Source: Fonticula-like sp. SCN 57-25 (lineage: Eukaryota). Taken from it: DNA of 64,000 nucleotides. Positions 2,090 to 61,496 of the stretch are shown here, one piece after another. The translations under genes and the position numbers were made by a program. The stretch is taken from contig MEDX01000002.1 in assembly GCA_001724245.1 (NCBI GenBank), forward strand, positions 1 to 64,000, written 5' to 3'. Positions within the stretch are counted from its first letter, which is position 1. The number at the start of each line of letters is the position of its first letter. The notes beneath the pieces were generated by a model. It was given only the letters and a program-made list of their open reading frames with translations. It was not told where the DNA came from and did not search any database.

Positions 2090-2483
2090 TAGGATTATAT
2101 GATTGGTGTGTATATTGTGTTGTGTATTGTGTGTATTGTGTGTAATTATAGCATAGATTGTGTTCATTTGTAGCATCCAATAGACCTTCTTATGTACTGA
2201 AACACACATTCATACCCATAAACCATCTTTTGATGCACATCATTAGACTATCATTCTATACCCATAGGCCATCATTGTGTATACATGCATGCACTGTCAT
2301 ATAGTGTACATAAACCACCTGTTAGTGTACATTAACCACCTTATAGTATACATAAACCATCTTTTGATGGACATCACTGTCATTTCATACCCATAAACTG
2401 TCATTTAGTGTACATAAACCATCATTATATTATTCTATTATATACATCATAATACTTGTACTCTACTTCTTCTACTTCTACTT

Positions 2484-4470
2484 CTATAACTTTCCCGCCA
2501 CATCCCCCCCCTCTGCCTCCCTCCTAAACACCTTCCCTCCCCCTCCCCTCCCCTGCACCTCCGCCGCCATCCTTCCCATCTGCATCTGCATCGCCCTAAC
2601 CACCCCCCTCAGCCCCTCCACTTCGTCGCGCAGCTGCAGCGTGTCGGCCACGCGGTACGCGTTCTGGGCAGAGGCAAAGCTGCGGAGCTGTTCGTGGAGG
2701 GCGTCCATGGTGAGGCGGAGTTGTTCGTTTTCTTGGCAGAGAAGCATAGAGGTTTCAGTGGCCTAATTGAGAGGAAAAGTGGGTTAGAAAAGGGGTAATG
2801 GGTGATATAATACATGTAGATGGGTATAGCAACACATGATACATATCACATTGATACATTGATACATGTACATGATACATATGCATGGTACATGATCATG
2901 ATAGATACACTGATACATACACAGTCATTGATTCATGTACATGATACATATACACTGATACATGTATATGATAGATACACTGATACATGATACATACACA
3001 TTGATACAAGGACATTGATACATACACATTGATACAAGGACATTGATACATGTACATGAACACATACACATTGATACATGTACATTGATGCATGTACATG
3101 ATACATACACATTGATAGATGTACATATACATTGATACATGTACACTGATACATACACTGATACATGTACATGGTACATACACTGATACATGGGCACATA
3201 CACATTGACATGTACATGATAGATATACAATACATGTACATGATAGACAATACAAGATACATACACATTGATACATGTACATGATACTTACATTGATACA
3301 TGTACATGAGCACATAATGGTCATGTACACATGAATACACGGACAACACATTGACACTTTCACAAATATACCTATCCACGTGGACATCTACATCCCATCC
3401 CATTCATCGTTCGTACCATGTCATGCCGCCTCCCGATTGCCGCAAGATCAACTTCAAGCTGCTCAACACGCAACCTCAAAGCACTACTCTGCTCTCTCAA
3501 CACATTATGCTATTAATACATGTGAGTATCACGTGGCCATGTGAGCAACATCATTATCAAAACATCCACAAACATCCCCTTAACAGCCCCTTTCGTACCT
3601 CTCGCTCTTGGGCCAGAAGGAACGGCTTGATGCGCACGAATGCGCACTCTGCCGCGTGCGCCGGCATTGCCTCGCGCTTGACCGTCGCAGCGCACCCAAA
3701 CCGCTCGCACTCGCACGGGACGGCGTGCTGGTTGCAGCTCTGCATGTGCGCCATCAGATCGCCGCGGGTGACTTGAGCGCCGCAGTCATCGCATGAGACG
3801 AGGGAGGCATCGCAGGCGCTTTGAGCGTGGTGATCCTGGTCGCCGGCGTGGACGGTGAGGCCGCAGCGGGGGCAGGGGACGGGGCGGAAGGTGCACACAA
3901 GCTCGTGATCGGGGATCTGTGATCGCGGTAACTGGGATGCACACGGAGTCAGTGTTGGAATCAGATGGTAATGAGCAAACATGAGCACGACAATCATGAC
4001 AAAAGATACTCAATATGGTGCCAATATCAAACATATCATTATCAATATTCACACAATATAGTCAAATATGCGCCATAGGGCGATATATTGGGGAATAATG
4101 CACGTACCCGGCGGGAGCAGCTGGGATGCCGGCATGGGATTGGGTCGTGCGGGCATGCGTTCGCGAGATGCGCCGCAAGGAGTGACCGCTCGGGCGTCTC
4201 TCCGCAGCCTTGAGACGCGTGAGGGCAGCGGATCCGCAGCTCATTGACGAGGTTGACCACGATGAGACTGGCCGGCGCGAGGTCGGCGTCCGCGATCGCC
4301 ATGCGGCACGTCGGGCATCGCGCATCGGCTCGCAGCGCCGCAGAGATGCACTCGCCGCAAAATGTGTGGCCGCAGGGCGACTGGACGGGTGTTTCAAAGG
4401 GGCACGCGCAGATGGCGCACAGCAGGTTGGCATTCACCGGCTCGACATACTCGTGGGCCGCGGCCGACAT
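2484..4470 (-). CDS. RING-HC + TRAF-type zinc finger + coiled-coil E3 ligase, no MATH domain, 3 introns
   Basis: CAICACPFETPVQSPCGHTFCGECI...CPTC RING; repeated C-x2/4-C...H-x3/4-C TRAF fingers; GTACG..AG introns at about 3932-4107, 3511-3598 and 2764-3417. Confidence 0.88.
2830..3360. repeat. Intronic imperfect repeat island (TGATACA/TGTACA)
   Basis: Dozens of shuffled TGATACATGTACA-like words. Confidence 0.9.
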
Positions 4471-4591
4471 GCCGAACCCACGCAATCAGGCGCAATCAGA
4501 TGGAATAAGCGGAATCAGTCACCGATCTGGAATCACGTGACCGGAATATTTTCTGTTGGGCGCCTTTGACGTTTGGCGGCATCCGGGCGCC

Positions 4592-5424
4592 ATGTCTGAC
4601 GACGAGTCGAGCCCCCCGCCGGGCAAGGAGGGTGGCGGGTACGCGCGTGCTCTTTGCTTATTCGCTTGATTAACCCTTTTTTCTTTCATTTTGATTCATT
4701 CAATGTTTAGTCGCAAGAAGCGCGCCAACCACAATGAGCTGGAGCGCAAGCGGCGGCATCACCAGAAAAACACCATGAATGACTTGCGGGATGCCGTTCC
4801 GATCCTTCAAATGGAAAAGCCGTCGACGGTTTCTATTTTGAGCAAGGGTGCGCCAATATTTATTTTATTAAACGTTGCCTAATCTCTTTGCGGTGCAGCC
4901 AAGGAGTATATACAGATGCTCGAGCAGCGGGCGTACGAGCAGGAGGAGGAGCTCGGCGGACTCAGGAAGCGGCTCAAGCTGCCGCCGCTCTCGGGAAAGC
5001 TCATGGCGCCGCCGGTGTCGGGCAACGCAGACCTGACCAGGAAAAAGGTCGAGTCGGTACGTTATGATGACTGCGTTACTTGGTTCTCACCTCGGCATCC
5101 TTCAGGTGCGCCGGGAAAATGATGAGCTGCGCAATAAAATCATGGACGTCGAGCGTGCGATCGCGTCGGTGCACAAGGGCGGCGCACGGCCAGCGGTGGT
5201 ACGCGCGCACACTTTCTCGCTGTTCAGTCTGTCTCACACCCGGCGATCTTTTGCAGAGTGCCGTGCCGGCCTTTGGATCCGTGGACCCCAATTTGGTTCT
5301 CGCGGCGCACCAGGTACGTTTCAATTGCCGCGCACCGCATTGCTCACGCGCATGGTAGGCCGCTGTGGCGGAAGAAGAGGACGATGTCGACGATGACGAG
5401 GAGGAGATCATTGACGACATCTGA
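4592..5424 (+). CDS. bHLH-leucine zipper transcription factor, Myc/Max/Mad-like, 5 introns
   Basis: Spliced product has KKRANHNELERKRR...LRDAVP...KPSTVSILSKAKEYIQML; the H-E-R basic residues are those of class B (CACGTG) binders. Confidence 0.88.
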
Positions 5425-6355: not shown

Positions 6356-8169
6356 ATGCCGTCGTTCCCTGCTTTCCAGGGGAAGAAGGCCGGCAAGCAT
6401 GGGTCGTCGACCCTGTGCATCGCGGGCGACTTTGAGCCCGAAAAGCACTACTACCCGCGCGTGCTGAACGCGCAGATCCACCCCGTCGTGAATCAGCTTC
6501 TTCATCTCAGCAATGACCGCATCATTGCCCGGTTCGCTCAGCTCTACCCGACGGCGAATCGCCATGTCCTCCGCGAGCTGCTAAACTACACGCCCGAGTA
6601 CTTCAAGTGGGCCGGCTCTGATCTCCTTCACGCGACCACGTCGGATGGCCGCCGTCGCATGGTGTGCATCGAGACCAACTCGTGCCCCTCTGGCCAAAAG
6701 TCGATGCCGCTCGCCGACGAAGATTGCCAGTTTGGCGGGTACCGCTCCGTCCTCGAGCGCACCTTCAACGACATTGCCGCGCGCGCCGACCCGCAGCTCG
6801 GCGCGCTCGCCGTCGTCTACGACAAGAACCCGATGGAGGCATCCGGCTACGCCAACGTGATGGCATCCGTCTTTGGCGAGCCCGTCCTCCTCGCCGAGTT
6901 TTACGACAGCGATCCCGACCCGCCGGTCAAGTGGGAAGACGGCGTCATGTTTGTCCGCCACCCGCAGTCCCACGGTGCGTTATTATTGATATTTAATTGG
7001 CATTTTGCTGACGCACGTGCGTTTTTTTTGCAGAGTGGGTGTCGATCCGCGCGGCCTTTCGCTACGTCACGCAGCGCCCCTGGCTTCGCTTCCCCACGCG
7101 CTCGCGCACGCTCATCCTGAACCCGATTGTTGCGTGCCTCGCCGGCGGCCGCAACAAGGCGATGGCGGCGCTCGCGTACGGCGCCTTCAACGAGCAGTAC
7201 CGCGAGGCCGGCCTGCGCATCCGCACGCCGCACACGAGCACGGGCATCCGAAAGGCCGACGTGCCGGCCATCATCGACGCCATGGGCGGGCACGGCGTCA
7301 TCAAGGTGCCGTATGCGAATGCGGGGCAGGGGATTTATACGATTACGCGCCAGCAGGAGCTCGCTGACTTTATGGCGGAGCGGCACCCGTACGACAGGTT
7401 TATCGTGCAGAGTCTCATCGGAAATCCGGCTTGGTCATCTACTACCACTGTGCGCATTTTTTGGGTAGATTTGGTCATTTTTTGGTTGTTTTTTTGGGGA
7501 TTGGTGTGTCATTTTTGGTGTTTTTTTGGATCAATTCAGGTTTGTTTTTGGATGAATTTTGGCTCATTTTTGGATCATCTTTGTCTATTTTTGTATCATT
7601 TTCTTATCTTTCTGCTTAGGACGGATGCTTCCACCACGTGGGCACAGTCCCTAATGAACGCGGCGAAACTTTCGTCGCCGACCTTCGCGTGATGGTGAGC
7701 GCCTGCAGCGCCGACGGCTTCAAGCCCGTCGCCCTCTACGCGCGCCGCGCCCGCAAGCCGCTCGCCGACGTCATCGAGCCTGAATCCCACGGTGCGTTCC
7801 CATTGGTCAGAATCGCCCTTTGCTGACACACCATTATTTTTCTTTTTCGTTCTTGTCATTGCTTCAGTGACCACCTGGGACATGCTTGGCACGAACCTTT
7901 CGATCAAGGACGCCGCGGGAAATTGGACGACCGCGAGCAACCGCCTTGTTATGATGGACCGCAAGGACTTTGGCGTGCTTGGCCTCGGCATTGACGAGCT
8001 TATTGAGGCGTACCTTCAGACCGTCTTTAGCGTGGTCGCCATTGACCACATGTGCAAGCGGCTCATGACGAGCGACGGGTTTGACTATGCGCTGTTTAAC
8101 GAGTTGAACCCCGATGAGGATCTCATGCGCGAGATCAATGAGGCATCGGCCGCGTGTGGCGCCCGATAG
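6356..8169 (+). CDS. Uncharacterised ATP-grasp-like protein, 3 introns
   Basis: Motifs [33 protein letters not shown] and ADLRVMV resemble ATP-grasp ligase motifs; GTGCG..AG introns restore one frame. Confidence 0.65.
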
Positions 8170-9220: not shown

Positions 9221-11754
9221 ATGCAAGGCGGCGGCGGATGGGGCCAAGGCGGGCCGCATCGCCCGCAGGGAGGGCAGCAATATGGTAATTTTAACGCGGT
9301 TCCGCCGCCTTCAGCGCCCGCGCGGCCGGCTTACCCTGCCGGTTATGCGGCGCCACAGCCGGGCACGCCGGGCTACGAGGCCTACATGCAGTACGTTTGG
9401 ACGCAGTACTACCAGCAGCAGGCTGCAAATGCTGCCGCGGCATCGGCGATGGGCACAACGACAACTTCTCCTGCGGCGAATGTTTACCGCGGGTCGGCAA
9501 TGCCGTCGGCGATGCCTGCTGCGTACGGCGCCGGCTACAACACCGTGCCGCCGCCCAATCGACCTGCCGCGTACGGCGCCGGTGCGACGCTGTCAGCGCG
9601 CCCAGTGTCGTATGCCGCTGCGACGCGCGGCCCTGTTCAGCTGACCCCCGTGGCGAGCGCGACGGGCGCGGCGGCAACGCAGCGTAAAACGCCGTGGGGC
9701 ACGTGGACTGTGGAGAGCACGGCGGTCAAGCCCGCTGTGCCGACCGCCGACCCCGGTGCCTTTCCGCCTGCACTGCTGTACGCAAACTATTATGAAGAAA
9801 AGTGTCATTTTTGAATAAGAATTGTGAAAGTGAAATGCTTATGATAATGTATAATATGATATTGGTCATGTGAATGTTGACGTTGTCAGTATTGTTGTCT
9901 GTCTTTGTGTGTGTGTATGGTATTGAGTGTGAGTATAAGTACATGATACTTGTTCATATTTGTGCTCATGATACTCACTATTTCTCTTCTTTTCTTCACT
10001 TTTAACACGTCTTTAAGTGAATATACGCGTCGTGCGATGCAACTCGCAAAAACCGACGCCGAACGCAAGCAGGCCGAGACGCTCATTTCGCAGACCATTG
10101 TCGAGGCGACACGTGAGGGTGTTTTGCGGACACGTGATTGGTCAAAGTACCCTCTGCCATCGTGCGCCCATTGGTCCATTTGTTATTAGGGCTTAGACTG
10201 ACACCACGTGGTCGTGTAGGTTGACGTCGCCTGAAAAGATCGCCTTCAAGCTGCCCACCAAAAACATGTACGTTTTATGATGTCATTGTTTTATGTTATT
10301 GTCCATTGGCATGATTGTCTATTGATATGACTGTTGTCTATTAACATGGCTATTTGAGCTATTGATATGACTATTGATATGACTATTGACATGATATTGA
10401 CATGAGTGTTCCATGACATGATATTGACATGAGTGTTCCATGACATGGCTATTGATATGAGTGTTCTATGACATGACTGTTGTCTATTGATATGACTATT
10501 GATATGACTATTGACATGACTGTCCTATGACATGACTATTGACAACGTTCTATAACATGACATCTATTGACATGAGTGTTCTATATTGACACATGACTGT
10601 CCTATATTCCTTCATTTGCTGACTCATCCTTTCCTTTCCTTTTCAGTGCCAAAAAACGCCCCACCTTTGGCGACGACATGACCTCTACCAGCACTTCTTC
10701 CCCTTCCACTTCCCGCCTCGTCCCAGTCACCGCCGCCACCGCCGCCCCCCTAAAAGACACCCCCCAAAACGGCGGGAAAAACAAGGACAAAAACCGCTCC
10801 AAAAAGTCGGTTTTAAAATCACTCATTTCCGACGCGTCCCTTTCCGGCGATCGCTCCGAGCAGCGCGAAAAACGACTGCGCCGCTTCGAATCAAGCTCGA
10901 GTGGGAGTCACGTGACTACAACACGTGACGATGACGTTGATGATTGGGCTGATACTGGGCTAGTAGGCACGTGCACGCGCCTTGAAAAGCGCTATTTCCG
11001 CCTAACTGCCGCGCCAAATCCCGCTGATGTACGTCCACTAACTGTCCTAAAAGAGACACTTTTACTATTAGAACAGAAATGGCGCACAGAAAAAGACTAT
11101 TTTTACATATGCGATCAGTTCAAATCGCTTCGCCAAGATCTCTCCGTTCAGCATATTCGAAATGACTTTACCGCGCTTGTCTATGAGTCACATGCACGAA
11201 TTGCGCTTGAAAAAGGCGATATTGGCGAGTTTAATCAGTGCCAGACACAGCTACGTGAGCTCTATTTACAAGGAATTCCAGGTAGCCAATCAGAATTCCT
11301 TGCCTATCGCATTCTCTACTTTTTAATGTCAAGATCTGCTTCAGACTTGAACAATGCACTCGCCATATTGACCCATATTGAAAGATGTCAGCCTGAAGTG
11401 CAGCATGCACTAAAAGTGAGACACGCAAGTGTGACTGGCAATTACATAAGGTGGTTTCAATTATACTCGTCTGCACCGCATATGGGAAAGTATCTTATGG
11501 GTCACTTTGCGCAGCGTGAAAGGCTTGTTGCTATGCGTGCAATTTGCAAGTCATTTAGGCCGTCAATTGAAGTAGAAACGGTTAGGGCATGGCTTGGGTT
11601 TGAAAGGGAAAAAGTGGAAGAGTTTTTGGGTGAAATTGGGGTGACGTATGTGGAGAAAAACAGGAAAGTGATTGATACAAAGGCGTCGATGCAGGCGGTG
11701 GTGAATGCGGCGCATAGTGCGAATGCGAGGGTGGATATCAAGGGGCAGTTGTAA
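9221..11754 (+). CDS. LENG8: SAC3/GANP-domain protein, LENG8/Thp3-like, 3 introns
   Basis: VGTCTRLEKRYFRLTAAPNPADVRP, YICDQFKSLRQDL, VYESHARIALEKGDIGEFNQCQTQL. Confidence 0.92.
10300..10600. repeat. Intronic imperfect repeat island (CTATTGAYATGA)
   Basis: Visible degenerate tandem words. Confidence 0.9.
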
Positions 11755-11799
11755 TTGTACATATGGAATAAAAGATAGGAAGATGTGTATTGAAGGAAT

Positions 11800-12190
11800 G
11801 AAAGTGATGGGGATAGTTGAAAGTGTGTATTCATGATAGATGATACATGTATTGATGATGGTACAGTAGATGGTAATACAAGATGCATGTATTGATGGTA
11901 CTGTACGATACATGGTATTACATGATACATGTATTGATGATAGATGATGATACATAATACAATGTCATGTATTGATGGTATACTTGATACATGTATTGAT
12001 GATGGCACATGGTAATATGCCATACATGTGTTGGTAATAGATAGATATATTATTATGACTATGATATGATCACGACAACACAGATAGATATATTATTATG
12101 ACCATGAATATGATCATGATAACACTGATAGATATATTATTTTGACCATGAATATGATATGATAAATACATGATCATAATATATGTCATT
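11800..12190. repeat. Convergent intergenic repeat island (GATACATGTATTGATG; GATAGATATATTATT)
   Basis: Visible degenerate tandem words. Confidence 0.85.
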
Positions 12191-12252
12191 TCACACTTGA
12201 AATCTTTATCCTTAATATTAATAATACTTTTTATTGATAACAAAATTCAGAA

Positions 12253-15200
12253 TCACTTTTCCAATCTCGCCTTTTGCCTCTCATACGCAATCCTCAAAAA
12301 CCTATTCATCCCTCCAATAAACCTCTCCCCTCCCTGCTTCAACCCCTCAATCCTCCTTAAAAGTGCATACGTCATCCTCTGCACGGCATCACTCGGGTGA
12401 TACAGTGACTGCGCAATTGGGTACAAACCGCCATGCTGCGGCGTCAAATAGGATAAAAGTTCAATTACTTGCTCATCTGACGTGACACTTTTTGTAATGT
12501 CTTCAAATAAGGAAATAACTTCCTTTTCGGGCATATTCTGCGCCACAAATAGCCTTTTTAGGACCCTCTTAACGTCCACTCCCTTTATGGCCGCCGCATC
12601 TTTCTGATCCGCCGCATCCTTGACATAATTCACATACGATTCATTCCCAGAATTCTTCCACTGCTCTGCCCTCCTCTGATTGGCCAGAGTAAATTTCTTG
12701 CGCGCAACTTCATCTGCAAACTCTGCCTCGTCATTGGCCAAATCAACAATCCCTTGCGCATATTCCCGGAATTGCAGCCTGATCTGATCTTCGGAATGAT
12801 GACTCGAAATGGACAACAATACACGCTGAATAAACTCATTGTCCATGGCCACGTGGGCATCAGGGGCAGAAGTGGCGGGAATGTGTGAGGCGAGTTTGAC
12901 TGTGCCCGTGGCCACGTTGCATAGGACGTCCCACCATTTCTCCATTTCTTCAAAGCGGGGGTTGGTGACGCCGGCAATGAAACCGGGACTAGAAAGGAAA
13001 GAAGGGAAACGGTAAGTGAAAGAAGGGTTAAGAAGGAGAAGAAGAGTAATATAATACATCAATGATGATCATCAATTATACTCAATGATGGTCATCAATG
13101 ATACTCAATGATCATCATCAATGACACTCATTACCATCAATGATACTCATCAATGATACACATGATACTCAATGATACACATGATACTCGATGGTACTCA
13201 TCAATGGTACTCATACATGATCATCAACAATGGCACTCATCAATGATACTCATCAATGATACTCAATGACACTCAATGACACTCATACCATCAATGACAC
13301 TCAACGATACTCAATAATATTGCTCAATGATACTCATACATGATACTCATACATGATGATCAATCATCAATGACACTCAATGATACTCAATGATACTCAA
13401 TGACACTCATGATCATCAATGATAATGACACTCATCATCATCAATGATACTCATGACACTCATCAATGATACTCATCAATCATCAATGATACTCTATGCC
13501 ACACAATGACACTCAATGACACTCAACAACACTCAATAATACTCAATACCACTCAATACCAATACTATTACCATCCCCTTCCCCTACTTTTCCTCTCCCC
13601 CCCCTATATTCCAATCATTTCCGTACTAACTGAGCATTGTATCCAAATTAACCAGATTCGTATACGGAAACGCCCTCTTTGTAAACCCCCTCAGCGGTGG
13701 CGCCATCATCGCACACGCCGCAAGCACGTAATTGGCGACTACGCCAGAGGGCATGTTGTAGCCGCAAAAGATGATGCGCTGCTGGCGGAGGAGAGCGTTG
13801 AAGATGAGCATGACGCCGTTTTCGCCTTTTGTTGTTGGTTGGGCGAATTTGCGGACCAGTTCAATTAGGGAGAACTGAAGTAATGGGTCAGTAAGGGAAG
13901 GAAAGTAGACAAAAGTAGACAAAAAGTATCTAAAAAGTATACAAAAAGTATAAAAAATACATCAAAAAGTATCTATAATACATCTATAATACATCTAAAA
14001 GTATCTATAATACATCTATAATACATCCATAATACATCCATAATGCATCCACAATACATCTAAAAAACATCCATAAAACAACATCATATCCACAATACAT
14101 CCAAAAACCACCCTCAAATTACCCACAATACATCCAAGAATCACCCCCAAATTCACCCCCAACTTCACTTAATCCAATAATCTCCCTCATTCGTACGTCT
14201 CCGACCTCGTCCTCGTGCAGTGTCACAGGCAACTTCATCGGAATATCCGTCTTTCCAAACCTCACTTTCGTCGCAAAGAACCTCCTATCAACCCCCGACA
14301 GCGCATCTGCCCCGCCCGCAGCCCTCACAATGCGCCGCTCGCTCTTGCTCAGCACCGGGTAATTCGTCAGATCCATCGCCATGATGTTGTCGTAGAGCTG
14401 CTGGATCACGCCGATCTCGGGCGTCTTGAAGAACTCATCGAGCGCCATGAGGAGGAGCGGCTTGTAGACGTGCACGGACGAGTGCTGCGTGCAGATGGCG
14501 ATGGCTTTGGTGCGCGCGCCGCGCTTGACGCCGGGGATGCTGTTGGTGCGCACGATGTTGAGGCAATGCAGGAAGGGTTTGGGGGTGTCAGGGGCAGAGT
14601 CTGGGGTGGGAGTGATCGCGGCATTGTCGGATGGGGAGAGGGCGGCGGCGGCGGCGGCGGCGGAAAAGAGGGAGAGGAAGGAGAGGAAGCGGGTCTCGTC
14701 GTCGGGGGTGGTGAAGCGGACGCCGATCGCGACGTCATCGTCGATGACGACATCGTACATGGGTTCCATCTGCTGGAACTGGAGAGCGGTGCTGCGGCGA
14801 CTATGGAAAAGGGTGAGAAAAAGAAGTAAAAGAAGAAAAGAAAGAAGAAGAAAAAGTAGAAAAAACAGTAAAAGAAGAGAAAACAAAGGTAAAAATAACA
14901 TAACAATTACAGGTAAATCACATCATCATCGACCTTGCGTACAGTATTTTGTCGGTGCCTGAGAATGAGATTGAGTTTTGGCCGAGCGTGACGGTTTGTT
15001 TTGCCGTGCCGATCATTTCCCACGCCTGGCTGCTCTCCGTGTAGAGGTACACGTAGCCTTCCAGGGTGCCGACCGCGAGCGCGATCGCATTCTCGGCCTC
15101 GGATACGGTCGCGGCGGCTTCGGCATGCAGCGTCGATGCCGCGGCGGCCGCTTTGGCGCGCGCTTCGGCCTCTTGCGCCGCCTTGCGCACGCGTACGGCC

Positions 15201-15453
15201 TCGGGAAGGGGCTGGTTCAGGAAAAAGACCGTCCAGTCCTGCACCGACTTGTGGGCGCCATCGGGAAGCATCAGCTCGGCCAGCACACTGTGGAGATTGT
15301 TAGCAGGGATCTCAAAAAGAAACCAGAAAGGAAGCGAGATGCGCACGAAACATCGTTTCCCGTCTCTTTCGGGTACTGAAATGAGACGACGCTGCCCTTT
15401 TCAATGTCAAACTCGGCCACGAGGATCGTGTCAATGGGCGGCGGCGGCGCCAT
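12253..15453 (-). CDS. Afi1/MesA-like DENN-related polarity protein, 4-5 introns
   Basis: ILVAEFDIEKGSVVSFQYP, LAELMLPDGAH..QDWTVFFLN, VKRGARTKAIAICT, YKPLLLMALDEFF, RAFPYTNL, GFIAGVTNPRFEE..WWDVLCN. Confidence 0.85.
13050..13570. repeat. Intronic imperfect repeat island (ATCAATGAYACTC)
   Basis: Visible degenerate tandem words. Confidence 0.9.
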
Positions 15454-15655
15454 GTTTATATTTGGCGCAGCAACACTCGCCGGCTCCGCCGAGTCAGCTT
15501 TGTTTAGCACAATTTGCAAATTTGCAAATTTGTGATTGGTCCAATCAGCATCTCGAACATCACGTGACGCGCTGACACGTGTTCCGCTTCTCCTGCACTT
15601 TTTCCCACTCCGCCCTCCCTCCGCAAAGGAAGAAAAAGAGACGAATCGTAGCAAC
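15454..15655. promoter_or_regulatory. Bidirectional promoter between the Afi1-like gene and enolase
   Basis: AATTTGCAAATTTGCAAATTT, inverted CCAAT pair GATTGGTCCAATC, TCACGTGA and ACACGTGT E-boxes. Confidence 0.55.
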
Positions 15656-17638
<1,983 letters not shown>

Positions 17639-17759: not shown

Positions 17760-18045
17760 TTCAAAAGAAGTAAGTATTAAAAGAAGTATCAAAGTAAGTA
17801 TCAAAGTAGTATCAAAGTAAATATCAAAGTAAGTATCAAAGTAAGTATGAAAGTATCAAAGTAGTATCAAAAGATGTATTAAAAGATGTATCAAAACATG
17901 TCCCATAGAGATGTCTCTATCAAAAGATGTATCAAAAGATGTATCAAAGATAACTCTATAGAGATGTCCCTTTCAAAAGAAGTATCTAAAGATAATCCTA
18001 TAAAGATGTCCTTATCAAAAGATGACATTGTCCATATCAAAAGAA
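17760..18045. repeat. Convergent intergenic island (GTATCAAA)
   Basis: Visible degenerate tandem words. Confidence 0.85.
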
Positions 18046-18102: not shown

Positions 18103-20962
18103 TTACTTTGCCTTTTTCTCTCTCCTTTCAAACAGTCTCATGATCCTCCCCTGCAACTGCAGATCGAGCATCGATGTCGCCGCCATCAGCACGACAATGA
18201 CAAGCTGACCCGCCACGAGCATGGCTAGCATGCCGGCAGTGGCGCGCTTGTCGGCAGTGCCTTCGGGAAGTTTGCAGGCGCGGCGGATCTGGGCGACGCG
18301 CATCGCATCATCAACAAGCGACACAATTGCACTAGAGGAAGGGAAAAGTAAGTAAAAAATGAGAAGGGATTAAAGAAACAAAATGTACACAAAAAGAGGT
18401 AAAAAGTGCATAAAAAGAGGTAAAAAGTGTTTAAAATGACACAAAAAGTGTCAACAATGAACTACACAAAAAGTACCAAAAAGTACCAAAATGCACCAAA
18501 AAGTACCAAAATGACATCAAAATGCACCAAAATGACACATTTTCCTTCATTTTCCCACATTTTCCATTCATTTTCAACATAATTTCGTACTTTGCGTCAT
18601 GTTGTGCCAATCTCGAATAGAACATTGCGTGAGACATTTCGCGCCGCCCCACCGACTCCAACGCCCTTTCCATCTTTTCACTCATCACGTGCATTCTTTT
18701 CACAATGGCCACGTGGACATCCCCACTCACCCCAAACGGCCTAATTAATTCCACTGAATGTTCAACTGCCCTTTTCTGACCCTCAAAATAGGCAAAAACG
18801 GCATTTCTAACAATGGAATCGACCAAAAAAGCGGCAATTTCATATGAAAAATGGTTCGAAAAAGGGCCAAAAGGCGAATGTCCAGTACCAAAAACATAGT
18901 CTGGCATTGGCGCATTATGAAGCGCACTCCATGTTAAATAGGGCGCGCCAACACCCCATAGTGATTCAAACAATGCTGCAGTCACTGCACGTGACATGCT
19001 TGATGACGTGGCAGATAATGGTTGGCCATCGCATGCAAACTGGGCATAGTACGCTGACTGTGCGCCGCCGTCCAGTAATAGTACAATGTCATCAAATACA
19101 GCATAATGATCACGTGACGTGTCGGAAGTGTCGAATAAGGCACGTGACGTCGTGTTGAATATGACGATTGGGACTGTTTGGACGGCGGAATTAATACTCG
19201 TTAATGATCGCACAAGATCAAGGCCAAGCACAAGTGAACGAAGTAAGGATGCGTCCACGTGGTGAGCGACACCGTCTTGAGTGACTGTTGACTACATGGT
19301 CACGTGAGTATTATGATCACGTGATGATGATCGTACGTAAGTGGCGGCTGCGAGTTGTGCGAGGAGAGATTTGTTATCGGTGGGAGGGACGGCGTGGTTG
19401 GTGACGAGAAGTTTGCGGCCGGGGTAGTGAAGTGGAGCAAGCTAGAAGAAGGGTAAGGAAAGGGGAAGAAGAAGGGGGTTAGAAGAAGAGTAATATTATA
19501 TATGGCAAGTGGACATGGTCAACATGGTCAAGTAGACATGGTCAAGTAGACATGGTGAACATGGTCAAGTGAACATGGTCATCAATGATACCACATGGTT
19601 ATCAATGACATGAACATGGTCATCAGTGATACCAATATGGTCATCAGTGATGTCAATATGGTCATCAGTGATATGGTCAAGTGAACATGGGCATGGTAGA
19701 CACATCAATGGTGATACCAGTATGGCATGATCATGAACATCAATGACAAGTGATCATGACAGATGAACACAATGAACACAAGTAAACATCGATAACCTCA
19801 TATGACAATAATAACAATATAGCAAACTTCAAATGACGTACCTTTCTCTGAAGTGCCGATGCCATATTCGGATCACGACGAGCATTCTCACTACACAGTG
19901 TTAACACCCATATACACTTTCACCCAACGCACTCTTCCGATGCAATGAATAGCCTGACGTCCATATCAGCATCTCTCACCTTGCCATCAAATATGGGCAA
20001 TTTTCCCACCGACGGCACAATGGTATGCTCGACAATCGCCCCCACAAATGACGCGAGCGCCGTCTCAAACGCCTCGAGCAGCACGCCATTCTGCCTTGTA
20101 AACTCTGCCAGGCTGGGCATGCTGTGGTCAGCGACGGCGCCCAGAAAGACTGTCCCGACGGTGCGGTTCGGCGCGGCGCCTTTTTCGACGAGCTGCGCGC
20201 CGAGATCGACCCACGTGAGGCGGTCCTGCGTGACGAGGAGCGACGAGCCGCAGGTGTCGGAGGGGGACATGCGGTAGGTGTAGGGGCCGCGCGTGCCGGC
20301 GGGGAGGTTGAGCAGGTAGATGGCGCTGAAGAGGCCAACGCGGTGGTGCTCGCCGCGGACGGCGGCGTCGAGCGAGATGATGTCGCGGATGGGGCCGGTG
20401 CCGGAGGCGGCGAGGAGGGATGCGTAGAGGGTGGGGGGGGCATGCGAGACGGAAATCGAATAGTCATACTCAATTGAAACAGCCTAAGGAAACGAATATG
20501 TTAGTTAAATACAAAAATACTTGTTTTTACTCTTTTTCGTACGTCATCGTAAAAGACGCTGGGGGATGAGGGGAGCTGGAGGCGCTCGAGGCGACGGCGA
20601 AACTGGCCGGCATCGACGCGGATGCCGCCGGCGCCGTCGCCGTTGAAGCCGACGAGAACGACGCTCACGAATTCGGTGAGGCGTTTCGAGTTGATGCGGT
20701 CGAGAAGAGTGGAAATGTCGGCGTTGCCGAGAGAGGCAAAGATCGGGGATGTGTCAGAGAGCCACCGAAAGGTGTCGACATTGGCCAAGGGATGTTTCTC
20801 CATCGTCGTGCCTGCGCAAATTTTAGCAAACAAAAACATCAAAATTGGATTTTTAGTACCAAAGGCGTCGGCGTCGCGCGTCGCGCCCGCCGCGGCGAGG
20901 CACACGTTCGCCGCGGCCGCGAGCAGCAGCATCAGCGCCGCCCACCGACCTGCCATCGCCAT
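18103..20962 (-). CDS. Uncharacterised type I membrane protein with signal peptide, C-terminal TM and KKxx tail, about 6 introns
   Basis: N-terminal hydrophobic signal; conserved-looking block [33 protein letters not shown] followed by REKKAK*. Confidence 0.7.
19500..19800. repeat. Intronic island (ACATGGTCA)
   Basis: Visible degenerate tandem words. Confidence 0.88.
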
Positions 20963-21051
20963 TCGCGCAGTCAGCAAATCTGAAACGGACCGAAACGGAC
21001 CGAAACCGACGTTTCCGCTTTCTGTTTCACGTGTTGGAGCGGTCGAAAGGG

Positions 21052-24002: not shown

Positions 24003-24740
24003 ATGTTGTCGCAAAAGTTTGCTCTCGCCACGATGGCGATCCAGATGGTACGGGGCGCGCTTCGCCATGGGGATGTCGCCGCTGACCGCATGGGATTGTA
24101 GGTGTACACTGCGCTGCTCGTCGCCATGTCGTTCGCCGCGACGGGGCTATACGGCGCGACGTTCGTGCCGGGCATCCTCTGCTCGGTCGCCTTTATCATT
24201 TCGCTGATCGGCACCATCAGCATTGCAAAGTACAGCGGCGTCATCTCTTTGCTGGTGCGTGGCCCCTTGGAATTCTGTTTGCCTCTCGCCCGATGATGGC
24301 CGTGCTCACACGTGCAAAAGGTCGGCGTCTTTTCCTTCCTTTGGGGCCTTTTCGCCATCGTCATGGCGCTCTTCTTCTTCAACGTGTTTGGCATCGGCCT
24401 CCCGATCGCCGACTACGGCAGCCTGTTCGCCGTCGTCATCTACGTGAGCCTCGGCGGCAATGTCACATCCTACGTGCTGCTCATCATCGGCGGCATCGTC
24501 TACGGCCTCAGCGCGCTCATTGGCGTACGCAGCGCTATAAATAACCCTTTTTGCTGACGAGCCGCGCGCAGATCCTCGTCTTTTCCTTCACGGTCTGGTT
24601 CTTTAAGGATCTCAAAGAATCCAACATCATGAGCTGTACGCACTCGTTTTTTGACACTTTTTTATGACTTTTTATGACTTTAAATGGCTAATAATGTGCG
24701 CGCAGTTGACTATAGCGACAAGTACGCTGGCTTCAACTAA
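24003..24740 (+). CDS. Small multi-pass membrane protein (about 4 TM), 4 introns
   Basis: Five exons joined by GTRCG..AG introns give a continuous hydrophobic ORF ending FDYSDKYAGFN*. Confidence 0.65.
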
Positions 24741-25222
24741 AGTCGGCGGCGGATCGGCCGTCAAAACCACCCCCAAAATTGTGCATGTTTTCAGTTCCCT
24801 TTTCGTCCCCTTTGTGTTTCGCTGTGTTCAAGTGAGTAGATGTATGTTTGCCGCCCCCAATTTTCCCTTAACTGTGCCTTGGTGAAGCGAGGCGTGCTGT
24901 GCGGCAGAGCGGCATTTCTGTTTCGTTGCCGTGATTGCTGGAAGAGTAAAAGTAATAAATAGCAGAATGAAAAGAAAAATTTGTTTTGATGCAAAGTAAA
25001 AGTATAAAGCAGAGAAAAAGTATGATATAAAGTATCATTTTAACGCATTGTATATGATGCAAAATAATATTTTGATGCAAATACGATGCAAAGTATTCAT
25101 AATTATATCATGCAAAGTATTCCCATATGAATCACTTTATTCTCATATGAATGACTTTATTCCCATATTACTTTATTCTCATATGATGCATTACATTTCT
25201 TATGCTTTGCTTCTCATATGAA

Positions 25223-34869: not shown

Positions 34870-35001
34870 CGCTCAAGCGTCAGCACGTCGTGCTATGCTC
34901 GTGCAGCTACGTGGTGCTACAAAAAGTGTGCTCCGTCCGGCCGTCTCTGCGCTGGAACTGTTTACGTCTGAATCTGGGGCAGACTGTCAGCGTTTGACAA
35001 G

Positions 35002-51129: not shown

Positions 51130-54100
51130 TTACAACGCCGTAAACGACCTCTCCCCCTTTTCCTCCCTCTGCCCCTCCTGCAGCGCCACACCACCCACAA
51201 CACTCTGCTGACTCACCACTTGACTTGTCACGTGACCATTTTGCTGACTCACCACTTGACCCCCAATCGCATTCTGAGCACCGACGGCCGCACTTGCCGC
51301 CGCCGCCGCCGCGTTAAATGTCTCGATCTGCTTCTGCAGCGCCACGCGATCCGCCGCGAGCTGCGTCCGGTGACGCGCCAAGTGCCGCCGCTCAGTTTCA
51401 AGCTGCGTTTCCATCGTCTCAAAGTGCGCCAACTTGATCTCGAGCTTGCGAAGTTGAAGTTCAACGACAGCGGCGACTTCGCGTTGCATCCGTCGCTCTT
51501 CAATTTCGGCAAGTGTCAAGGCGCGGGCGGCGGCGGCGCCAAAGGCAGCGCCAGCGGCACGAAGTTGAGCAGATTCGCTGGGGGCCACGTGGGCGGGGTC
51601 AGCGGGTTTTTCACTGTCCACTTCCATCGCATCATCTTCTTTTTTCTCTTCTTGAGGGGCAGCTGAATCGGACTTTTCATCCTTCTTGTCTTGTTGAGGG
51701 GCAGCCACATCAGACTTGTCTCCCTTCTTGCCATCTTCTTGAGGGGCAGCCAGACGGGCCTTGCGTTCTTCCGCAAGTGCTCGAAGTGCCGCTTGGGCCG
51801 CGCATGCTGCCACGTTGGGACTCACCGAGCTGGCCAAAAACGCCATAACAGTCATAACAGGGTTCTCTGCGCGCGTAAACGGCATTGTCGTCGCCGCCGC
51901 CGCCGCGATCGCCATCGATCCCGACAGATTCCCACCCCCCCCTTGCTGCATCACCGACTGCGCGATCGGCGCCGATGCCGGCTCGAGGAACGGATCTTCG
52001 ATGGGCAGCTGCAAAAAGTGCAGCAAGCACTGCTCGCGCGTGCGCGTCCCGACATGCTCAGCCACCTTATTCCAGTCCTCTTGAAACATTTCAATGCCCT
52101 CGAGCAGCAAAAACACTTCCTGCTCTGTCCACGCATCCTGCGTGTCGTGCCGCATCGCCGCCGTGTGCATGCGCACAAAGTCGCCCGAAAACATGGTGTG
52201 CGGAAAGCGACCCTCGAGGAAACAATTGGCGCACAGGTCAAACGGCTTGTCGCGCGCCGCGTGGTAGCGGTACCCCGCGATCAGCACACCGCACGACCAA
52301 CAATGCACACTGTCGCGCTTCCCCGCCGGCACACTCGCCAGCCGATCGCTGCTCACATTCGCCGACGCAGATCCGCCAGTGGCAAAAATGTCGCCCTTAA
52401 AGTCGAGCGAGCCCGTCACGCGCGGCGCCGCCACCGACGACCCCACCCCACTCTGCGCCTGCACTTGCCCACTTTGCCCGCCCTGCGCGCCGCCCGCGCC
52501 ACTGACAGCGTTGCCAGGCTTGGCCGCCGCGCCAATGGCCGTCGGCCTAAACAGCTCGAGCCCCTCTGGCACTTCCGCCGTCACCTCAAAGTGCGCCGTG
52601 AACGACGGCCCCATTGGCGACGGCCGCGTGTCCGGGTCCACCTGGTGGTTGATCAGCCCCCACTGCTCGAGAAAGGCGTGCACGCGGATGATGGCGCACA
52701 CGTCGCCGGTCAGGTTGCGGCGGCAGGCGGTGACGGTGAGGTACTCGTCGGGGTTGAGGCGGTACGTGTTGATCATAAAGTCGCGGTACTCTTTGTAGAT
52801 GGAGGGGGTTTTGGAGCGGTTGCGCTTGTTGAAGAATTCGGGAAGGGATCGGCTCTCAATCTGAAGGGGGCAATGGGGTTAGGAAAAGTAGCGAAAGAAG
52901 GGGAAGAGAAGAGGGAAAGAGGTATACAATGCACAAGTACATGATACAAAGTATAAGAAAAGTACATGACAAGTACATGATACAGAGTACATGATACAGA
53001 GTACGTGATACAGAGTACAAGTACATGATACCAAGAAAAAGTTCACAATACCAAGTACACAATACCATACCAAGTACATGATATCAAGTATCCAGTACAT
53101 GACACCAAAGTACATGATACAAAGTACATGATACAAAGTACACAACACAATACAAATTACATGATACATAGTACATGATACAAAGTACATGATACAAAGT
53201 ACAAGATATACAAGATACCATACAAGTACAAGTCAAGTACATGATACCAAGTACATGATACCAAGTACAAGTACAAACCAAATTCCATACAGCTACACCA
53301 CACCAATATCCACAAATTCCACTTGACCACAATTGCGTACATCGTTGATTTGATCAAAAGAGAACCACGCCGCATACGACGGAATCACCAACGCCCTCTT
53401 TTGCTGCGCCATCCTCGCCTCCACCTCCTCCTGCTCCGCCGCATCCACTTCAGTTCCATTCCCGCTACTCGCCACCTCACCACTGATGCTTGCCGGCGCA
53501 CGCGGCTCAGTGACGACGACCGGCGGGTGACCGGGGCCTTCCGACATGTTGCCGCTCGACAGGTTGGCCGTCGTGCCCGTCGGCAGCGGCTCGAGCTCAA
53601 TGGTGCGCCGTCCCGACTGTTTCATTTTTCCGGCTTCGGCTTGCAGGTCGACGGCGGCGGCGGGCGTCTCGAGCAGCGCGTCGGCGGTCGGCTCGGGCGC
53701 CGACGAGCGCGCGCGCTTCCTGGGCGCGCTCTCGTCGTCGTTGGCGGCGGACGCGGCGGCGGCGCGGCGGTTTTTCGCGTCGCGCGAGGCGGCGGACTTG
53801 GCGGGCGACGCCGCCTTGGTGCTGCTGCTGCTGGCGGCAGCGTCGGCGGCGTCGTCCTCGACCTCATAGTCCTCCTCGTTCATCCACTCGTTGAACTTTG
53901 CGCTGTCGAGCAGCCAGCGCGCAGAGACGCGCCAGCGGCCGCTGTGCGGGGGGGCGGGCTCGGGGTCGCCGGCGTCGGATTCGGGGACCCACGCGTCGTG
54001 GCTGTCGGGAAAGTACCACCAGTGGACGAGCGAGCGGGCGCCGGATCGCTCGAGCGTGCGGAACCAATCATCGTCATCGGCTTCTTCGGGGGCTTCAAAG

Positions 54101-57121: not shown

Positions 57122-57238
57122 GTTGTCTCTTTCCTTGATCCGCGCGGGAGGGGGTAACAACTAGAAGTGTGGCGCGGAAAGGCCATGTGCCACGTGGCAA
57201 TATCGCCCAATCACTCTTGTGGCAGTGACGTGGCAGGG

Positions 57239-57293
57239 GTGTGACAGGGCTGTATCCACGTGGCAGATGTGTGACAGGGCTGTATCCACGTGG
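57239..57293. repeat. Direct repeat, 2 x GTGTGACAGGGCTGTATCCACGTGG, period 30
   Basis: Exact copies at 57239-57263 and 57269-57293, upstream of ABCF2. Confidence 0.9.
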
Positions 57294-59212: not shown

Positions 59213-61496
59213 ATGTCGTCGACGAGCGCTGCGCCGGCCCCGTCCCCCGCGGCGGAGGGCAAGCCCGTCTACGTGTCCGAAGCCAAGGGCAGCGACGAGA
59301 CCGGAGACGGCTCCGAGGCCAAGCCGTTCAAGACGGCGCTTCACGCGCTGTCGCTCGACATCAACGCCATCGTTTTTGTCGAGGGCGCCGAGGGGTTCGC
59401 AAAGATCTCTGATGCCGGCCTGAAGAAGCAGAAGAAGCAGTTGGAGCTCAACGAGAAGAAGGCCGCCAAGGCCGCTCAGCTCGCCGCCGCCGCCGCCCAA
59501 AAGGTACTTTTTTTTGGTCCTTTTCCCTCTTTTTCTGCCTTTTTTCCTTGCTTACGCGTGGACGATTCCAGGCCGAGGAGGAAGCGCGCCGTCTCGAAGA
59601 GGCCAAAAAGATCGTTCTCGTCGAGGACGCCTCTCTCCCCGCCGCCGTCCAGATCAAGATCCGCGAAGGCAAGGAGCACCGCGGCAAGCGCGTCAAGATC
59701 AGCGGCTGGGTCCATCGCCTCCGCTCGCAGGGCAAGGCGCTCCTCTTCATCGTCCTCCGCGATGGCACTGGCCTCGTGCAGTGCGTCCTCAACGACCGCC
59801 TCGTACGCCTTTTTGCAGCTTTTTTGCACCTTTTTCTAATGAATTTTGCAGTGCCAGACGTACAATGCGCTGACGCTGACGCGCGAGAGCACCGTGACGA
59901 TCTATGGCGTGCTCACTGAGGTGCCCGAGGGCCAGTCGGCCGAGGGCGGCCACGAGCTCAAGGCGGACTACTGGGAGCTCGTCGCGGCGGCGCCCGGCGG
60001 CGCAGAGTCGGCCGACAACAAGTTTAACACGGAGAGCAACCCTGATGTGCTCCTGGACAACCGCCACATGGTCCTTCGTGGTGACAAGGGTACGAATTGT
60101 GGGGTTTTTTGTGGGGTTTTGTGTGTTTTGTAGAGTGTTTTTACACTCTTTTTGTACCTTTTGTGACATTTTTGCCCTTATTTTTTTAGTTTTTGTGTCT
60201 TTTTCGCCCATTTTTTCCCCTTTCTGTGTCTTTTTGCGCGCTTTTTCCACTTTTTCCACACTTTTTTCCCCACTTTTCCCCACTTTTCCCCACTTTTTCC
60301 TCACTAAATTTCTCTTTCTCAGCCTCCAAGATCCTCAAGGTCCGCGCTGTCGTCCTCAAAGCCTTCCGCGACCACTTTTACGACCGCGGCTACTTTGAAG
60401 TCACCCCCCCCTGCATGGTCCAAACCCAGGTCGAAGGCGGCTCAACCCTATTCGAATTCGACTATTACGGCGAGCCCGCTTACCTCACGCAGTCGTCCCA
60501 GCTGTACCTCGAGACGGTCATTCCCTCGCTCGGCGACGTTTACTGCATTCAAGAGTCGTTTAGGGCGGAAAAGTCGCGCACGCGTCGTCACCTGAGTGAG
60601 TATACGCACTTGGAGGCGGAGTGTCCGTTTATCGATTTTGACGAGTTGCTCAACCGTGTCGAAGACCTCGTACGTAGCATAAAAGTGTTTTTAATGTGGA
60701 AATAGAGTGTTTTTGGTGTGGAAATGGTCGTTTTTTGGTTGGTTTTGGGTGGTTTTTGGTCGTGTTTTGGTACTTTTGGGTTGTTTTTGGTCATTTTTTC
60801 GATACTTTTTAGAGTGTTTTTGGACATGTTTTTGATACTTTTTGCTTGTTTTTTATCACTTTTTGCCACTTTTCACTCACTTTTTACTTACCTCTCCTCT
60901 CTTTTCTTCCCTTCCCTTAGATTACGGATGTTGTTGCGCGCGTTCAGTCGAGCCCCTTTGCTCATCTCCTCACCGAGCTCAACCCCACTTTTGTCGCCCC
61001 CAAGAAGCCCTTCCGCCGCATGGCCTACGCCGACGGCATCAAGTGGCTCAACGAGCACGGCATCAAGAAAGACGACGGCACCGACTTTGTCTTTGGCGAG
61101 GACATTAACGAAGCCCCCGAGCGCAAGATGACGGACGCCATCAACGAGCCGATCTTGTTTTGCCGCTTCCCCGCCGAGATCAAGTCGTTCTACATGCAGC
61201 GCTGCGCGGACGACCGCCGCGTGACCGAGTCTGTCGACGTTCTCATGCCGGGCGTCGGCGAGATCGTCGGCGGGTCGATGCGCATCTGGGACATTGCCGA
61301 GCTGATGGAGGGGTACAAGCGGGAGGGGATCGATCCGTCGCCGTACTATTGGTTTACGGATCAGCGCAAGTATGGCGCGTGCCCGCATGGGGGGTATGGG
61401 CTGGGCGTGGAGAGGTTCTTGACGTGGCTGCTGGGGTTGGAGCACATTAGGGAGGTGTGCATGTACCCGAGGTTTGTCGGGAGATGCAAGCCGTGA
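59213..61496 (+). CDS. NARS: Cytoplasmic asparaginyl-tRNA synthetase, 4 introns
   Basis: [70 protein letters not shown]. Confidence 0.98.

Follow-up and report, generated by a model that had tools for sequence, protein, structure and literature searches.

The 64,000-nucleotide stretch at the start of contig MEDX01000002.1 of Fonticula-like sp. SCN 57-25 (assembly GCA_001724245.1, forward strand), designated the window in the following, is gene-dense, with coding blocks of 55-75% GC set against AT islands of about 30% GC. At these islands the GC skew changes its sign, the DNA being G-rich before an island and C-rich after it when read 5' to 3'. This skew flip is a real, unusually strong and boundary-linked bias of silent sites. 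All results come from this one 64-kb window and from self-built gene models.

Genes, introns and AT islands of the window

Gene models were predicted from the continuity of open reading frames (ORFs) together with splice motifs (donor GT[AG]CG[TCA], branch site CT[AG]AC, acceptor YAG). An intron was accepted only when its removal restored a long open frame, because a search by motif alone gave too many false donors in the GC-rich exons. ORFs were picked by the GC content of each codon phase, and the strand of the SWI3 exon was set by its Pfam match; a codon log-odds model built on the eight ORFs confirmed by Pfam was dropped as too noisy, the GC content of third codon positions (GC3) ranging from 0.48 to 0.89 between genes. 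The Pfam matches of these eight long ORFs are SAC3/GANP, AVL9/SPA, enolase, SWI3/SMARCC, ABC-F ATPase, TDP1, HemD and, weakly, bZIP. Scans of the window for Rfam families and tRNAs gave no matches. The 21 gene models comprise 23,058 coding bases and 38 introns within coding sequence, which fall into two length classes of 44-90 nt (n = 21) and 142-836 nt (n = 17), called short and long introns below.

Islands of at least 200 nt are nearly all long introns or spacers between convergent genes. They consist of degenerate tandem repeats, the commonest periods being 10-13 nt and multiples thereof (21-23, 32-33 and 42-44 nt), and such repeat arrays lie at 10300-10620, 13050-13560, 13900-14160, 17220-17560 and 17770-18020. 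In several introns (e.g. 60090-60322 and 7450-7619) runs of T are spaced by about 10-11 nt, which is near the helical repeat of DNA, so that the island DNA may be intrinsically bent or nucleosome-excluding. Promoters in the window are short and not AT-rich. The start codons of the divergent pairs AVL9/enolase, g19900/ETF-beta and TRAF/bHLH are only 89-384 nt apart, and their shared promoters (15272-15655, 20963-21051 and 4471-4702, respectively) are not AT-rich, unlike the long AT-rich 3' spacers of convergent genes.

The gene of the SAC3/GANP family on the + strand (Pfam SAC3_GANP, E = 1e-22) contains a 379-nt intron of AT-rich repeats (10268..10646; tandem repeats of period 12 to 28) with a GTACGT donor, a CTGAC branch site and a CAG acceptor, the removal of which joins the exons in frame. 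Its sense GC skews by quintile are +0.30, +0.20, +0.33, -0.12 and -0.38, i.e. it has a G/T-rich start and a C/T-rich end. The exon start behind it (10647..10800, + strand) is C-rich, with a skew of -0.49 at 10650-10800 (G 23, C 68) and a third-position skew of -0.70 in the first 150 nt after an ATG at 10678. The last coding exon of this gene is G-rich before its stop codon (11580..11751, + strand; skew +0.62, G 69, C 16), and the third positions of its last 150 nt comprise 29 G and 2 C. In the AT-rich convergent spacer that follows (11755..12252; tandem repeats of period 15 to 44), the + strand GC skew declines from positive to negative values (deciles +0.86, +0.76, +0.58 ... -0.09, -0.50) and the AT skew is flat (-0.09 to +0.26).

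On the other side of the spacer lies the AVL9/SPA-domain gene on the - strand (Pfam SPA, E = 1.4e-11; spliced ORF open across 681 codons). Its last coding exon (12256..12988) shows a + strand skew of -0.94 at 12290-12360, i.e. a G-rich 3' end in sense, and again 29 G and 2 C at the third positions of the last 150 nt. Further upstream in the gene there is a 638-nt intron of tandem repeats with a period of about 10-13 nt (12989..13626; GTACGG donor at 13626, TAG acceptor at 12989; sense quintile skews +0.89, +0.45, +0.48, +0.38, -0.35; AT skew -0.18), which is followed by a short exon between two long introns (13627..13874) that is C-rich and then G-rich, in sense as well as on the + strand (skew -0.61 at 13501-13700 and +0.23 at 13701-13900). 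The next intron of 322 nt (13875..14196; GTACGA donor, CTGAC branch site, CAG acceptor) has sense quintile skews of +0.86, +1.00, +0.88, +0.45 and -0.55, with third-position skews of +0.54 in its upstream and -0.66 in its downstream flank. The exon beyond it (14197..14800) is C-rich on the left and G-rich on the right of the + strand (-0.44 at 14200-14330, +0.46 at 14560-14820), and the adjoining 142-nt intron (14801..14942; GTACGC donor) is the shortest with a flank effect, its upstream-minus-downstream third-position skew being +0.42.

Similar features recur elsewhere in the window. Intron 4 of the enolase gene (17181..17574, + strand; 394 nt), whose splice junction restores ...LLR joined to IEEELG, has a G/T-rich repeat body and a (TAC)n/C-rich tail (quintiles +0.93, +0.86, +0.64, +0.38, -0.58). 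The strongest flank contrast of the window is found at a 480-nt intron of the SWI3/SMARCC-like gene (52861..53340, - strand; spliced ORF of 967 codons open), with third-position skews of +0.65 upstream and -0.67 downstream, and the long intron of the Asn-tRNA ligase gene (60090..60322, + strand) has a flank third-position difference of +0.63. Around the convergent spacer at 2090..2483, between an intronless bZIP gene (+ strand) and a gene for a TRAF-type zinc-finger protein (- strand), both gene ends are G-rich in sense; the last 150 nt of the TRAF-type gene have 36 G and no C at third positions.

The skew flip at islands, introns and gene ends

For an analysis that makes no use of annotation, an AT island was defined as a stretch of at least 80 nt with a 101-nt smoothed GC content below 0.42, located at least 200 nt from the window ends, which yielded 51 islands. 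The difference D between the GC skew of the 150 nt to the left and that of the 150 nt to the right was positive at 40 of the 51 islands (mean 0.327, binomial p = 6e-5), and none of 5000 random placements of equal lengths matched the observed mean (z = 6.7). D increases with island length (Spearman rho 0.58, p = 7e-6): it is positive at 18 of 20 islands of at least 200 nt (mean 0.56) and at 22 of 31 shorter ones (mean 0.18). A meta-profile of 49 islands has the same polarity, island edges included. At -150..-100 ahead of the island, G exceeds C in 38 cases and C exceeds G in 11; at +50..+100 beyond it, C is the more frequent in 32 and G in 15. The initial annotation had been drawn to the flip by five C-rich intervals after islands and five G-rich intervals before them, and all ten bear it out, with + strand GC skews of -0.28 to -0.94 and +0.27 to +0.62, respectively (binomial p <= 0.009 for each).

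An increase of the effect with the length of the AT island might also be expected if the islands were zones of replication initiation (leading strand rich in A+C) or termination (leading strand rich in G+T). In bacteria and man the leading strand is G+T-rich. Yeast leading strands are enriched in A+C (PMC3459929), so that either sign can be matched, and island-centred bidirectional asymmetries are known at human CpG islands (PMC2817419). The islands of the window, however, follow each other every 1-2 kb and the effect fades within about 150-250 nt, whereas replication skews are small, extend over kilobases and were studied in 10-kb windows (PMC3459929); moreover, the A/T component expected of fork asymmetry is missing in the islands. 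We therefore consider an origin in replication highly improbable.

Within genes, the skew is almost wholly one of third codon positions; GC3, A3 and T3 (here, as for C3 and G3 below, the share of a base at third positions) and codon positions 1 and 2 barely change. GC3 differs widely among neighbouring genes, so that the flank effect has to be judged relative to a baseline that leans toward C: the genes for ABC-F (55292-57121) and enolase (15656-17635), which are presumably highly expressed, have a GC3 of 0.84-0.89 with C3 above G3, and the SAC3-like gene has a GC3 of only 0.48. Third positions more than 200 nt from both exon ends show C3 0.42 and G3 0.34. The corresponding values are 0.62 and 0.17 within 150 nt after long acceptors, 0.33 and 0.44 within 150 nt before long donors, 0.25 and 0.45 before stop codons, and about 0.51 and 0.33 on both sides of short introns. 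At fourfold degenerate sites, the fractions of C and G are 0.47 and 0.34 in exon interiors (n = 1276), compared with 0.71 and 0.12 after long acceptors (n = 370; Fisher p = 1e-20), 0.33 and 0.47 before long donors (n = 367; p = 5e-7) and 0.28 and 0.46 before stops (n = 407; p = 1e-9). A comparison of these sites on the two sides of an intron gave Fisher p = 9e-31 for long and p = 0.18 for short introns.

The flanks of individual introns agree with the pooled values. Upstream-minus-downstream third-position skew was positive for 15 of the 16 long introns that had enough sites (one of the 17 was dropped), with a mean of +0.50 (Wilcoxon p = 6e-5), and for 8 of 21 short introns, with a mean of -0.06 (p = 0.49); in all 12 of 12 genes the third-position skew after long acceptors was negative. 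The bias spans about the first 150 nt of an exon and is absent by 250 nt. The flank difference correlates with intron length (rho 0.67, p = 7e-6) and not with the GC content of the intron, and there is no flank effect at three short introns whose GC content is as low as that of the islands (0.25-0.28); hence, length matters and not AT content alone. The bias is the same for both gene strands, as had been claimed, with sense third-position skews of +0.04 upstream and -0.34 downstream in + strand genes (6 long introns) and of +0.10 and -0.49 in - strand genes (10 long introns). The codon shift described for enolase was likewise found: glycine is encoded by GGC ten times in early exon 4 and by GGT five times and GGC twice in the last 150 nt, where threonine moves to ACG (four times), and the ratio of C to G at third positions of this exon runs by quintile from 26:9 over 22:13, 26:14 and 20:18 to 11:20.

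That the flip arises from chance, faulty gene models or protein composition has practically no probability left. The models are indeed self-built on ORF continuity and splice motifs, and some exon ends encode low-complexity sequence, e.g. the Ser/Thr/Pro-rich start of the SAC3-like protein. On the other side stand the random placements of islands, the consistency of the contrasts in single genes, and codon positions 1 and 2, which keep a normal coding composition while position 3 flips. At the level of the window this explanation was rejected by the annotation-free and the codon-position tests.

Gene starts and gene ends differ in their behaviour. When the starts of 14 genes are pooled, there is no C bias and no peak of skew on either side of the ATG, the sense values being -0.04 to -0.11 over the 300 nt upstream and +0.07 to -0.13 over the 300 nt downstream; third positions in the first 150 nt are near baseline (C 0.42, G 0.39). 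The pooled stops of 20 genes show a skew of +0.14 to +0.26 from -150 to +100. Among 18 genes, the more AT-rich DNA there is in the 400 nt behind the stop, the higher is the third-position skew over the last 150 nt of the gene (rho 0.80, p = 8e-5); where this DNA amounts to at least 150 nt, 11 of 13 genes have a stop-side G bias, as against none of the 5 genes with less. Of the 21 models, bHLH (no stop in the model), enolase (last exon of 61 nt) and g6296 (last exon unsure) were dropped from this count. Fourfold sites before stops have A 0.14 and T 0.12, those in interiors A 0.08 and T 0.12. Since stops without AT-rich DNA are unbiased, the island and not the phase of transcription is the predictor.

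Two of the modelled stops may be read-through artefacts of unmodelled long introns (19923-19932 and 29934-30010): g19900 has a GTGCGT donor at 19932 directly before its stop, and the ORF of g27650 is open to 29722, so that g29900 and g27650 may be one gene. If they are artefacts, both cases shift to the class of long donors, and the sign of every result is unchanged.

The intronless bZIP gene lies beside a 388-nt island, and its last 150 nt contain 29 G and 13 C, against 115 G and 170 C elsewhere in the gene (odds ratio 3.3, Fisher p = 7e-4). The effect is thus not a by-product of splice signals; it goes with the long AT islands, and the 21 short introns lack it.

The data on gene ends also bear on an explanation by transcription of the kind proposed for fungal genes (PMC3315797), in which early, elongating and terminating or pausing states of RNA polymerase II would leave differing mutational or repair biases on the coding strand; as the state would be set back by a long intron, every exon between two long islands would behave as a small gene. 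Intron bodies and 3' spacers with more G than C in sense are in accordance with it, as is a pattern in fungi that is likewise G/C-specific with A/T nearly flat, affects fourfold sites, reaches into 3' untranslated regions (UTRs) and has a G bias at the 3' end (PMC3315797). Genuine 5' ends should then be C-biased, yet those of the 14 genes are not; none of the five stops with little AT-rich DNA has a G bias, and short introns reset nothing. This makes a regime of transcription states an unlikely cause.

The reverse-complement symmetry of the pattern, to which the initial annotation had appealed in order to exclude transcription direction, does not serve this purpose. The sense rule "C-rich after, G-rich before" is itself reverse-complement symmetric; an exon that starts C-rich and ends G-rich is its own reverse complement, and symmetry therefore cannot separate a sense-strand from a strand-blind cause. 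Only islands adjoining promoters or untranscribed DNA could discriminate between the two, and none was identified in the window.

Island interiors and possible causes of the flip

The interior of long introns was analysed for 20 introns, three of which lie outside the coding part of the models. The share of G drops from 0.31 in the first decile to 0.06 in the last, and that of C increases from 0.08 to 0.36; the first quintile has a positive skew in 19 of the 20 introns and the last quintile a negative one in all of them, and the pooled skew is positive in deciles 1-7. Short introns are U-rich, with more T than A, but they do not have more G than C (first quartile G 0.12, C 0.16). Contrary to the initial statement, the flip is not centred on the island in introns: it occurs in sense at 0.21-0.92 of the length, with a pooled zero crossing at about 0.72. 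U-richness, a G-rich body and a C/U-rich tail of about 80 nt ahead of the 3' splice site, which overlie it, would explain this shift from the centre. Three of the four convergent spacers run from positive to negative GC skew along the + strand, without a gradient of AT skew. The fourth holds an additional GC-rich block of about 230 nt (24700-24930), C-rich and then G-rich like the exons, in which no long ORF, Rfam match or tRNA was found.

We tentatively favour, at something short of even confidence, the view that the flip is written by a polar process at the DNA level which begins in the islands and affects the two strands differently on either side; the candidate of the right sign is breakage followed by 5'->3' resection. 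The repeat-filled islands, which are assumed to be nucleosome-poor, would break recurrently, and resection would then leave the strand whose 3' end points toward the island single-stranded; on this exposed strand C would be lost through C>T and C>G changes. The sense-oriented features of introns (U-richness, G-rich body, C/U tail) would lie on top of the island-driven skew. The one rule "G-rich, island, C-rich" covers introns of + strand genes, introns of - strand genes, convergent spacers and the intronless gene, and the sign of the flip, its range, its dependence on dose, its restriction to silent sites and the 3' bias of the intronless gene are directly observed. Composition is C-poor to the left and G-poor to the right of islands, a sign that agrees with resection-linked mutagenesis, although it concerns composition and not events. 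In break-associated mutation clusters of yeast the top strand is mutated at C to the left and at G to the right of the break (PMC6786661), and strand-asymmetric de novo mutations have been found around human crossovers, non-crossovers and hotspots of double-strand breaks (PMC11922761).

At twofold degenerate sites, the shift has the direction of a transition asymmetry. Compared with exon interiors, where C/(C+T) of NNY codons is 0.67 and G/(G+A) of NNR codons 0.73, the two values are 0.82 and 0.56 behind long acceptors, 0.62 and 0.84 ahead of long donors, and 0.51 and 0.76 ahead of stops. The loss of C to T in NNY codons before stops (0.51 versus 0.67) has p = 3e-4, and fourfold A and T stay flat. 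The twofold shifts fit raised C>T on the strand with its 3' end toward the island and fit a preference for C or G at the RNA level equally. At fourfold sites the sum of A and G changes from 0.17 behind long acceptors to 0.57 ahead of long donors, a shift between purines and pyrimidines so large that transitions alone are insufficient and C>G changes, a two-step path under a pull toward high GC3, or selection are needed. Of the initial proposal of cytosine loss on resected tails, the polarity thus holds and fits 5'->3' resection; a simple loss of C to T is not supported, A and T being flat while G and C swap.

Several points weigh against a DNA-level process of this kind. Plain C>T loss should raise T, and T is flat, so that C>G bypass or the two-step path under GC pull is required; inside long introns, too, T is 0.41-0.45 and A about 0.22 in all deciles while G and C swap. 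In all 20 long introns T exceeds A in sense (AT skew -0.14 to -0.67), and the strand independence claimed initially consequently finds no support inside the islands. Long introns have a positive skew across the body, followed by a C/U-rich tail of 45-196 nt (median about 84 nt), and the tails of the 836-, 638- and 480-nt introns are no longer than those of shorter long introns; a sense tail of roughly fixed length and the excess of T over A mean that sense-oriented forces clearly act at the same places. Silent-site skews of 0.6-0.9 far exceed known nuclear mutational skews, which favours fixation bias or selection. Candida albicans is not known to have an ordinary meiosis. The skew at fungal gene ends is strong in this species (PMC3315797), which argues against a meiotic cause if the patterns are the same.

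The sense orientation of the intron architecture, with its constant U-richness and a C/U tail of roughly fixed length, is what selection on the pre-mRNA would lead one to expect. Long introns might need a G-rich, C-poor 5' arm (exon end plus intron start) and a C-rich, G-poor 3' arm (intron tail plus exon start), which would pair across the intron and thereby unite the splice sites, or would mark the exon ends as binding sites; silent sites would be recruited because the proteins cannot change, and a G-rich 3' end followed by a long AT-rich 3' region would reflect either a related RNA-level signal or one of its own. We regard this as a possibility to be taken seriously, if a somewhat doubtful one. 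Only long introns are affected, start codons lack a C bias, and the G-rich start is limited to long introns (G 0.31 and C 0.08 in decile 1, compared with the G 0.12 and C 0.16 of short introns). The change is G/C-specific at constant A/T, and its size suits selection. Over 70 nt, all combinations of a 5' and a 3' arm can pair, at about -23 kcal/mol. In the Asn-tRNA ligase intron at 60090-60322, the words between the T-runs go from GTGGGG... to ...CCCCAC and are thus complementary, whereas the runs are T on both arms, unlike in a DNA inverted repeat, so that the symmetry looks like one of RNA rather than DNA; the arms of this intron rank 1/20 for duplex energy. There are precedents in fish, where introns carry (AC)n at one end and (GT)n at the other and so bridge their splice sites, and in man, where introns have G triplets toward the 5' end and C triplets toward the 3' end (PMC4691745).

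Other results are difficult to reconcile with such arms. The G bias before stops scales with the AT-rich DNA that follows, the intronless gene included, where there is nothing to bridge, and a second explanation would be needed. Cognate arms are no better matched than non-cognate ones (-24.3 versus -23.1 kcal/mol; permutation p = 0.14, median rank 9/19), which makes bridging less probable, although low-complexity zippers need no cognate fit. In the longest introns a G-rich body of several hundred nucleotides faces a C-rich tail of only about 80 nt, and a reach of 150 nt into the exon is, by general knowledge, long for splicing enhancers.

Two further mechanisms were considered and rejected. 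Asymmetric repair about the nucleosome dyad, which Mao et al. are said to have described in 2020, was ruled out, because the sign of the skew is constant throughout the first 150 nt, without a change at about 75 nt. Strand-biased repair of G:T mismatches in heteroduplex presents one G:T configuration at both types of site and, in its simple version, yields no skew.

Sequence variation and related loci were compared with the window as well. Contigs from four metagenome runs show 379 differing places and 70 indels relative to it. The variant totals of run X4, with the two sides of islands pooled, are about balanced (A>G 34, T>C 29, C>T 31, G>A 36); this run includes pieces that are about 3% diverged (e.g. 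14 differences in 445 nt). Among the 12 of the 70 indels that were covered, islands differ in run X5 by whole repeat units (a 6-nt insertion at 13479 and 8-nt deletions at 8321 and 16525), in one contig each and at a depth of 4-11, and repeat number may vary between strains. Among 80 related loci, one 3.3-kb contig (L001) is identical and the others have at most 55% protein identity, except for a segment of 63 residues at 67% (L079); none of them provided an orthologue in which the intron length differs. The island test was applied to the 26 of these loci that have at least 6 kb and gave a positive D at 44 of 69 islands, several of the loci being one organism resampled; in L002-L004, which at 43% identity match best after the identical contig, D was positive at 7 of 19 islands.

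Two features of the window stand apart from the skew. The palindrome CACGTG occurs 70 times where 20 copies are expected, a number reached in none of 100 shuffles, and it is strongly clustered, in introns and in coding exons of genes with lower GC content (18686-19323, 36407-37114, 10110-10210, 10909-10973, 29564-29620 and 57191-57292). The TDP1 gene (34972-37261; tyrosyl-DNA phosphodiesterase) encodes an N-terminal PBZ (zf-CCHH) zinc finger and the gene at 2487-4470 resembles that of a TRAF-type zinc-finger protein; neither type of zinc finger is known to be typical of yeasts, so that the organism may be an early-branching fungus or a protist of another kind.

Relation to known asymmetries and significance

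The closest known pattern is that of opposite GC skews at the two ends of fungal genes (McLean and Tirosh 2011; PMC3315797), which shares with the window the G bias of the coding strand at the 3' end, the effect at fourfold sites, its extension into the 3' UTR and the nearly flat A/T. The unit in fungi is the gene, whereas here it is the exon between long AT-rich islands, with a full flip at internal long introns. The fungal pattern includes a C bias at the 5' end and promoter, which starts and promoters lack here; the 3' bias of the window, unlike that of fungi, depends on a long AT-rich spacer behind the stop; and the first two codon positions, which are equally affected in fungi (PMC3315797), are hardly touched here. 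The window therefore shares the 3' half and not the 5' half of the fungal pattern and is not a member of it as defined. Introns appear once in the available text of PMC3315797, within the discussion of an adaptive hypothesis. In that text and in the literature searched, we found no recurrence of the flip within genes at every long AT-rich intron, no scaling with island length and no confinement to silent sites.

Mutagenesis linked to breaks (PMC6786661, PMC11922761) has the same polarity, C to the left and G to the right, with 3' tails single-stranded after resection; it is described there as mutation events and spectra over kilobase tracts, whereas the window shows standing base composition. 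The literature search turned up no case in which a break-linked asymmetry had become fixed as a silent-site skew of 0.5-0.9. Intron-bridging repeats (Lin et al. 2016, PMC4691745) resemble the islands in their complementary, low-complexity simple repeats at intron ends, which are capable of pairing. They are elements of introns only, co-occurring "across introns but not exons" (PMC4691745), whereas the arms of the window reach 150 nt into exons, the same G bias is present at gene ends, and cognate arms are no better matched than foreign ones.

The intron asymmetry that is linked to transcription and splicing in mammals amounts to a few percent and is uniform along the intron. As reviewed for man and mouse (PMC10030826), it has in common with the window an excess of T over A in sense and intron bodies with more G than C. 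It predicts neither C-rich exon starts nor a dependence on intron length. The asymmetries at human CpG islands (Polak and Arndt 2009, PMC2817419) and the skews at yeast origins (PMC3459929) share the reverse-complement-symmetric change of sign at a compositional island and differ in their GC-rich islands, their extent of up to 1 Mb or several kilobases, their small amplitude and the joint occurrence of GC and TA skews.

For the opposite GC skews of gene ends in unicellular fungi, described in 2011, the authors put forward one mutational and one adaptive idea (PMC3315797), and agreement on a cause has not been reached since. A skew that recurs inside genes, and is lacking at promoters and short introns, allows two predictors to be told apart, namely the phase of transcription and whether a long AT-rich island adjoins. 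Up to about 150 nt from a long intron, synonymous sites of this organism deviate strongly from neutrality and uniformity, the odds of C3 to G3 shifting three- to four-fold, and the silent-site skew bears on measures of codon usage, on gene finders and on estimates of substitution rates. It is conceivable, although we think it rather unlikely in its full extent, that the long AT islands are the recurrent sites of breakage or recombination initiation of this genome, with the polarity of resection written into the first 150 nt or so of silent sites on each side, and that the long-unexplained opposite skews of fungal genes are the same footprint around open regions at gene ends. If the break model is true, hotspots and their strength would be readable from the sequence alone, also in uncultured eukaryotes.

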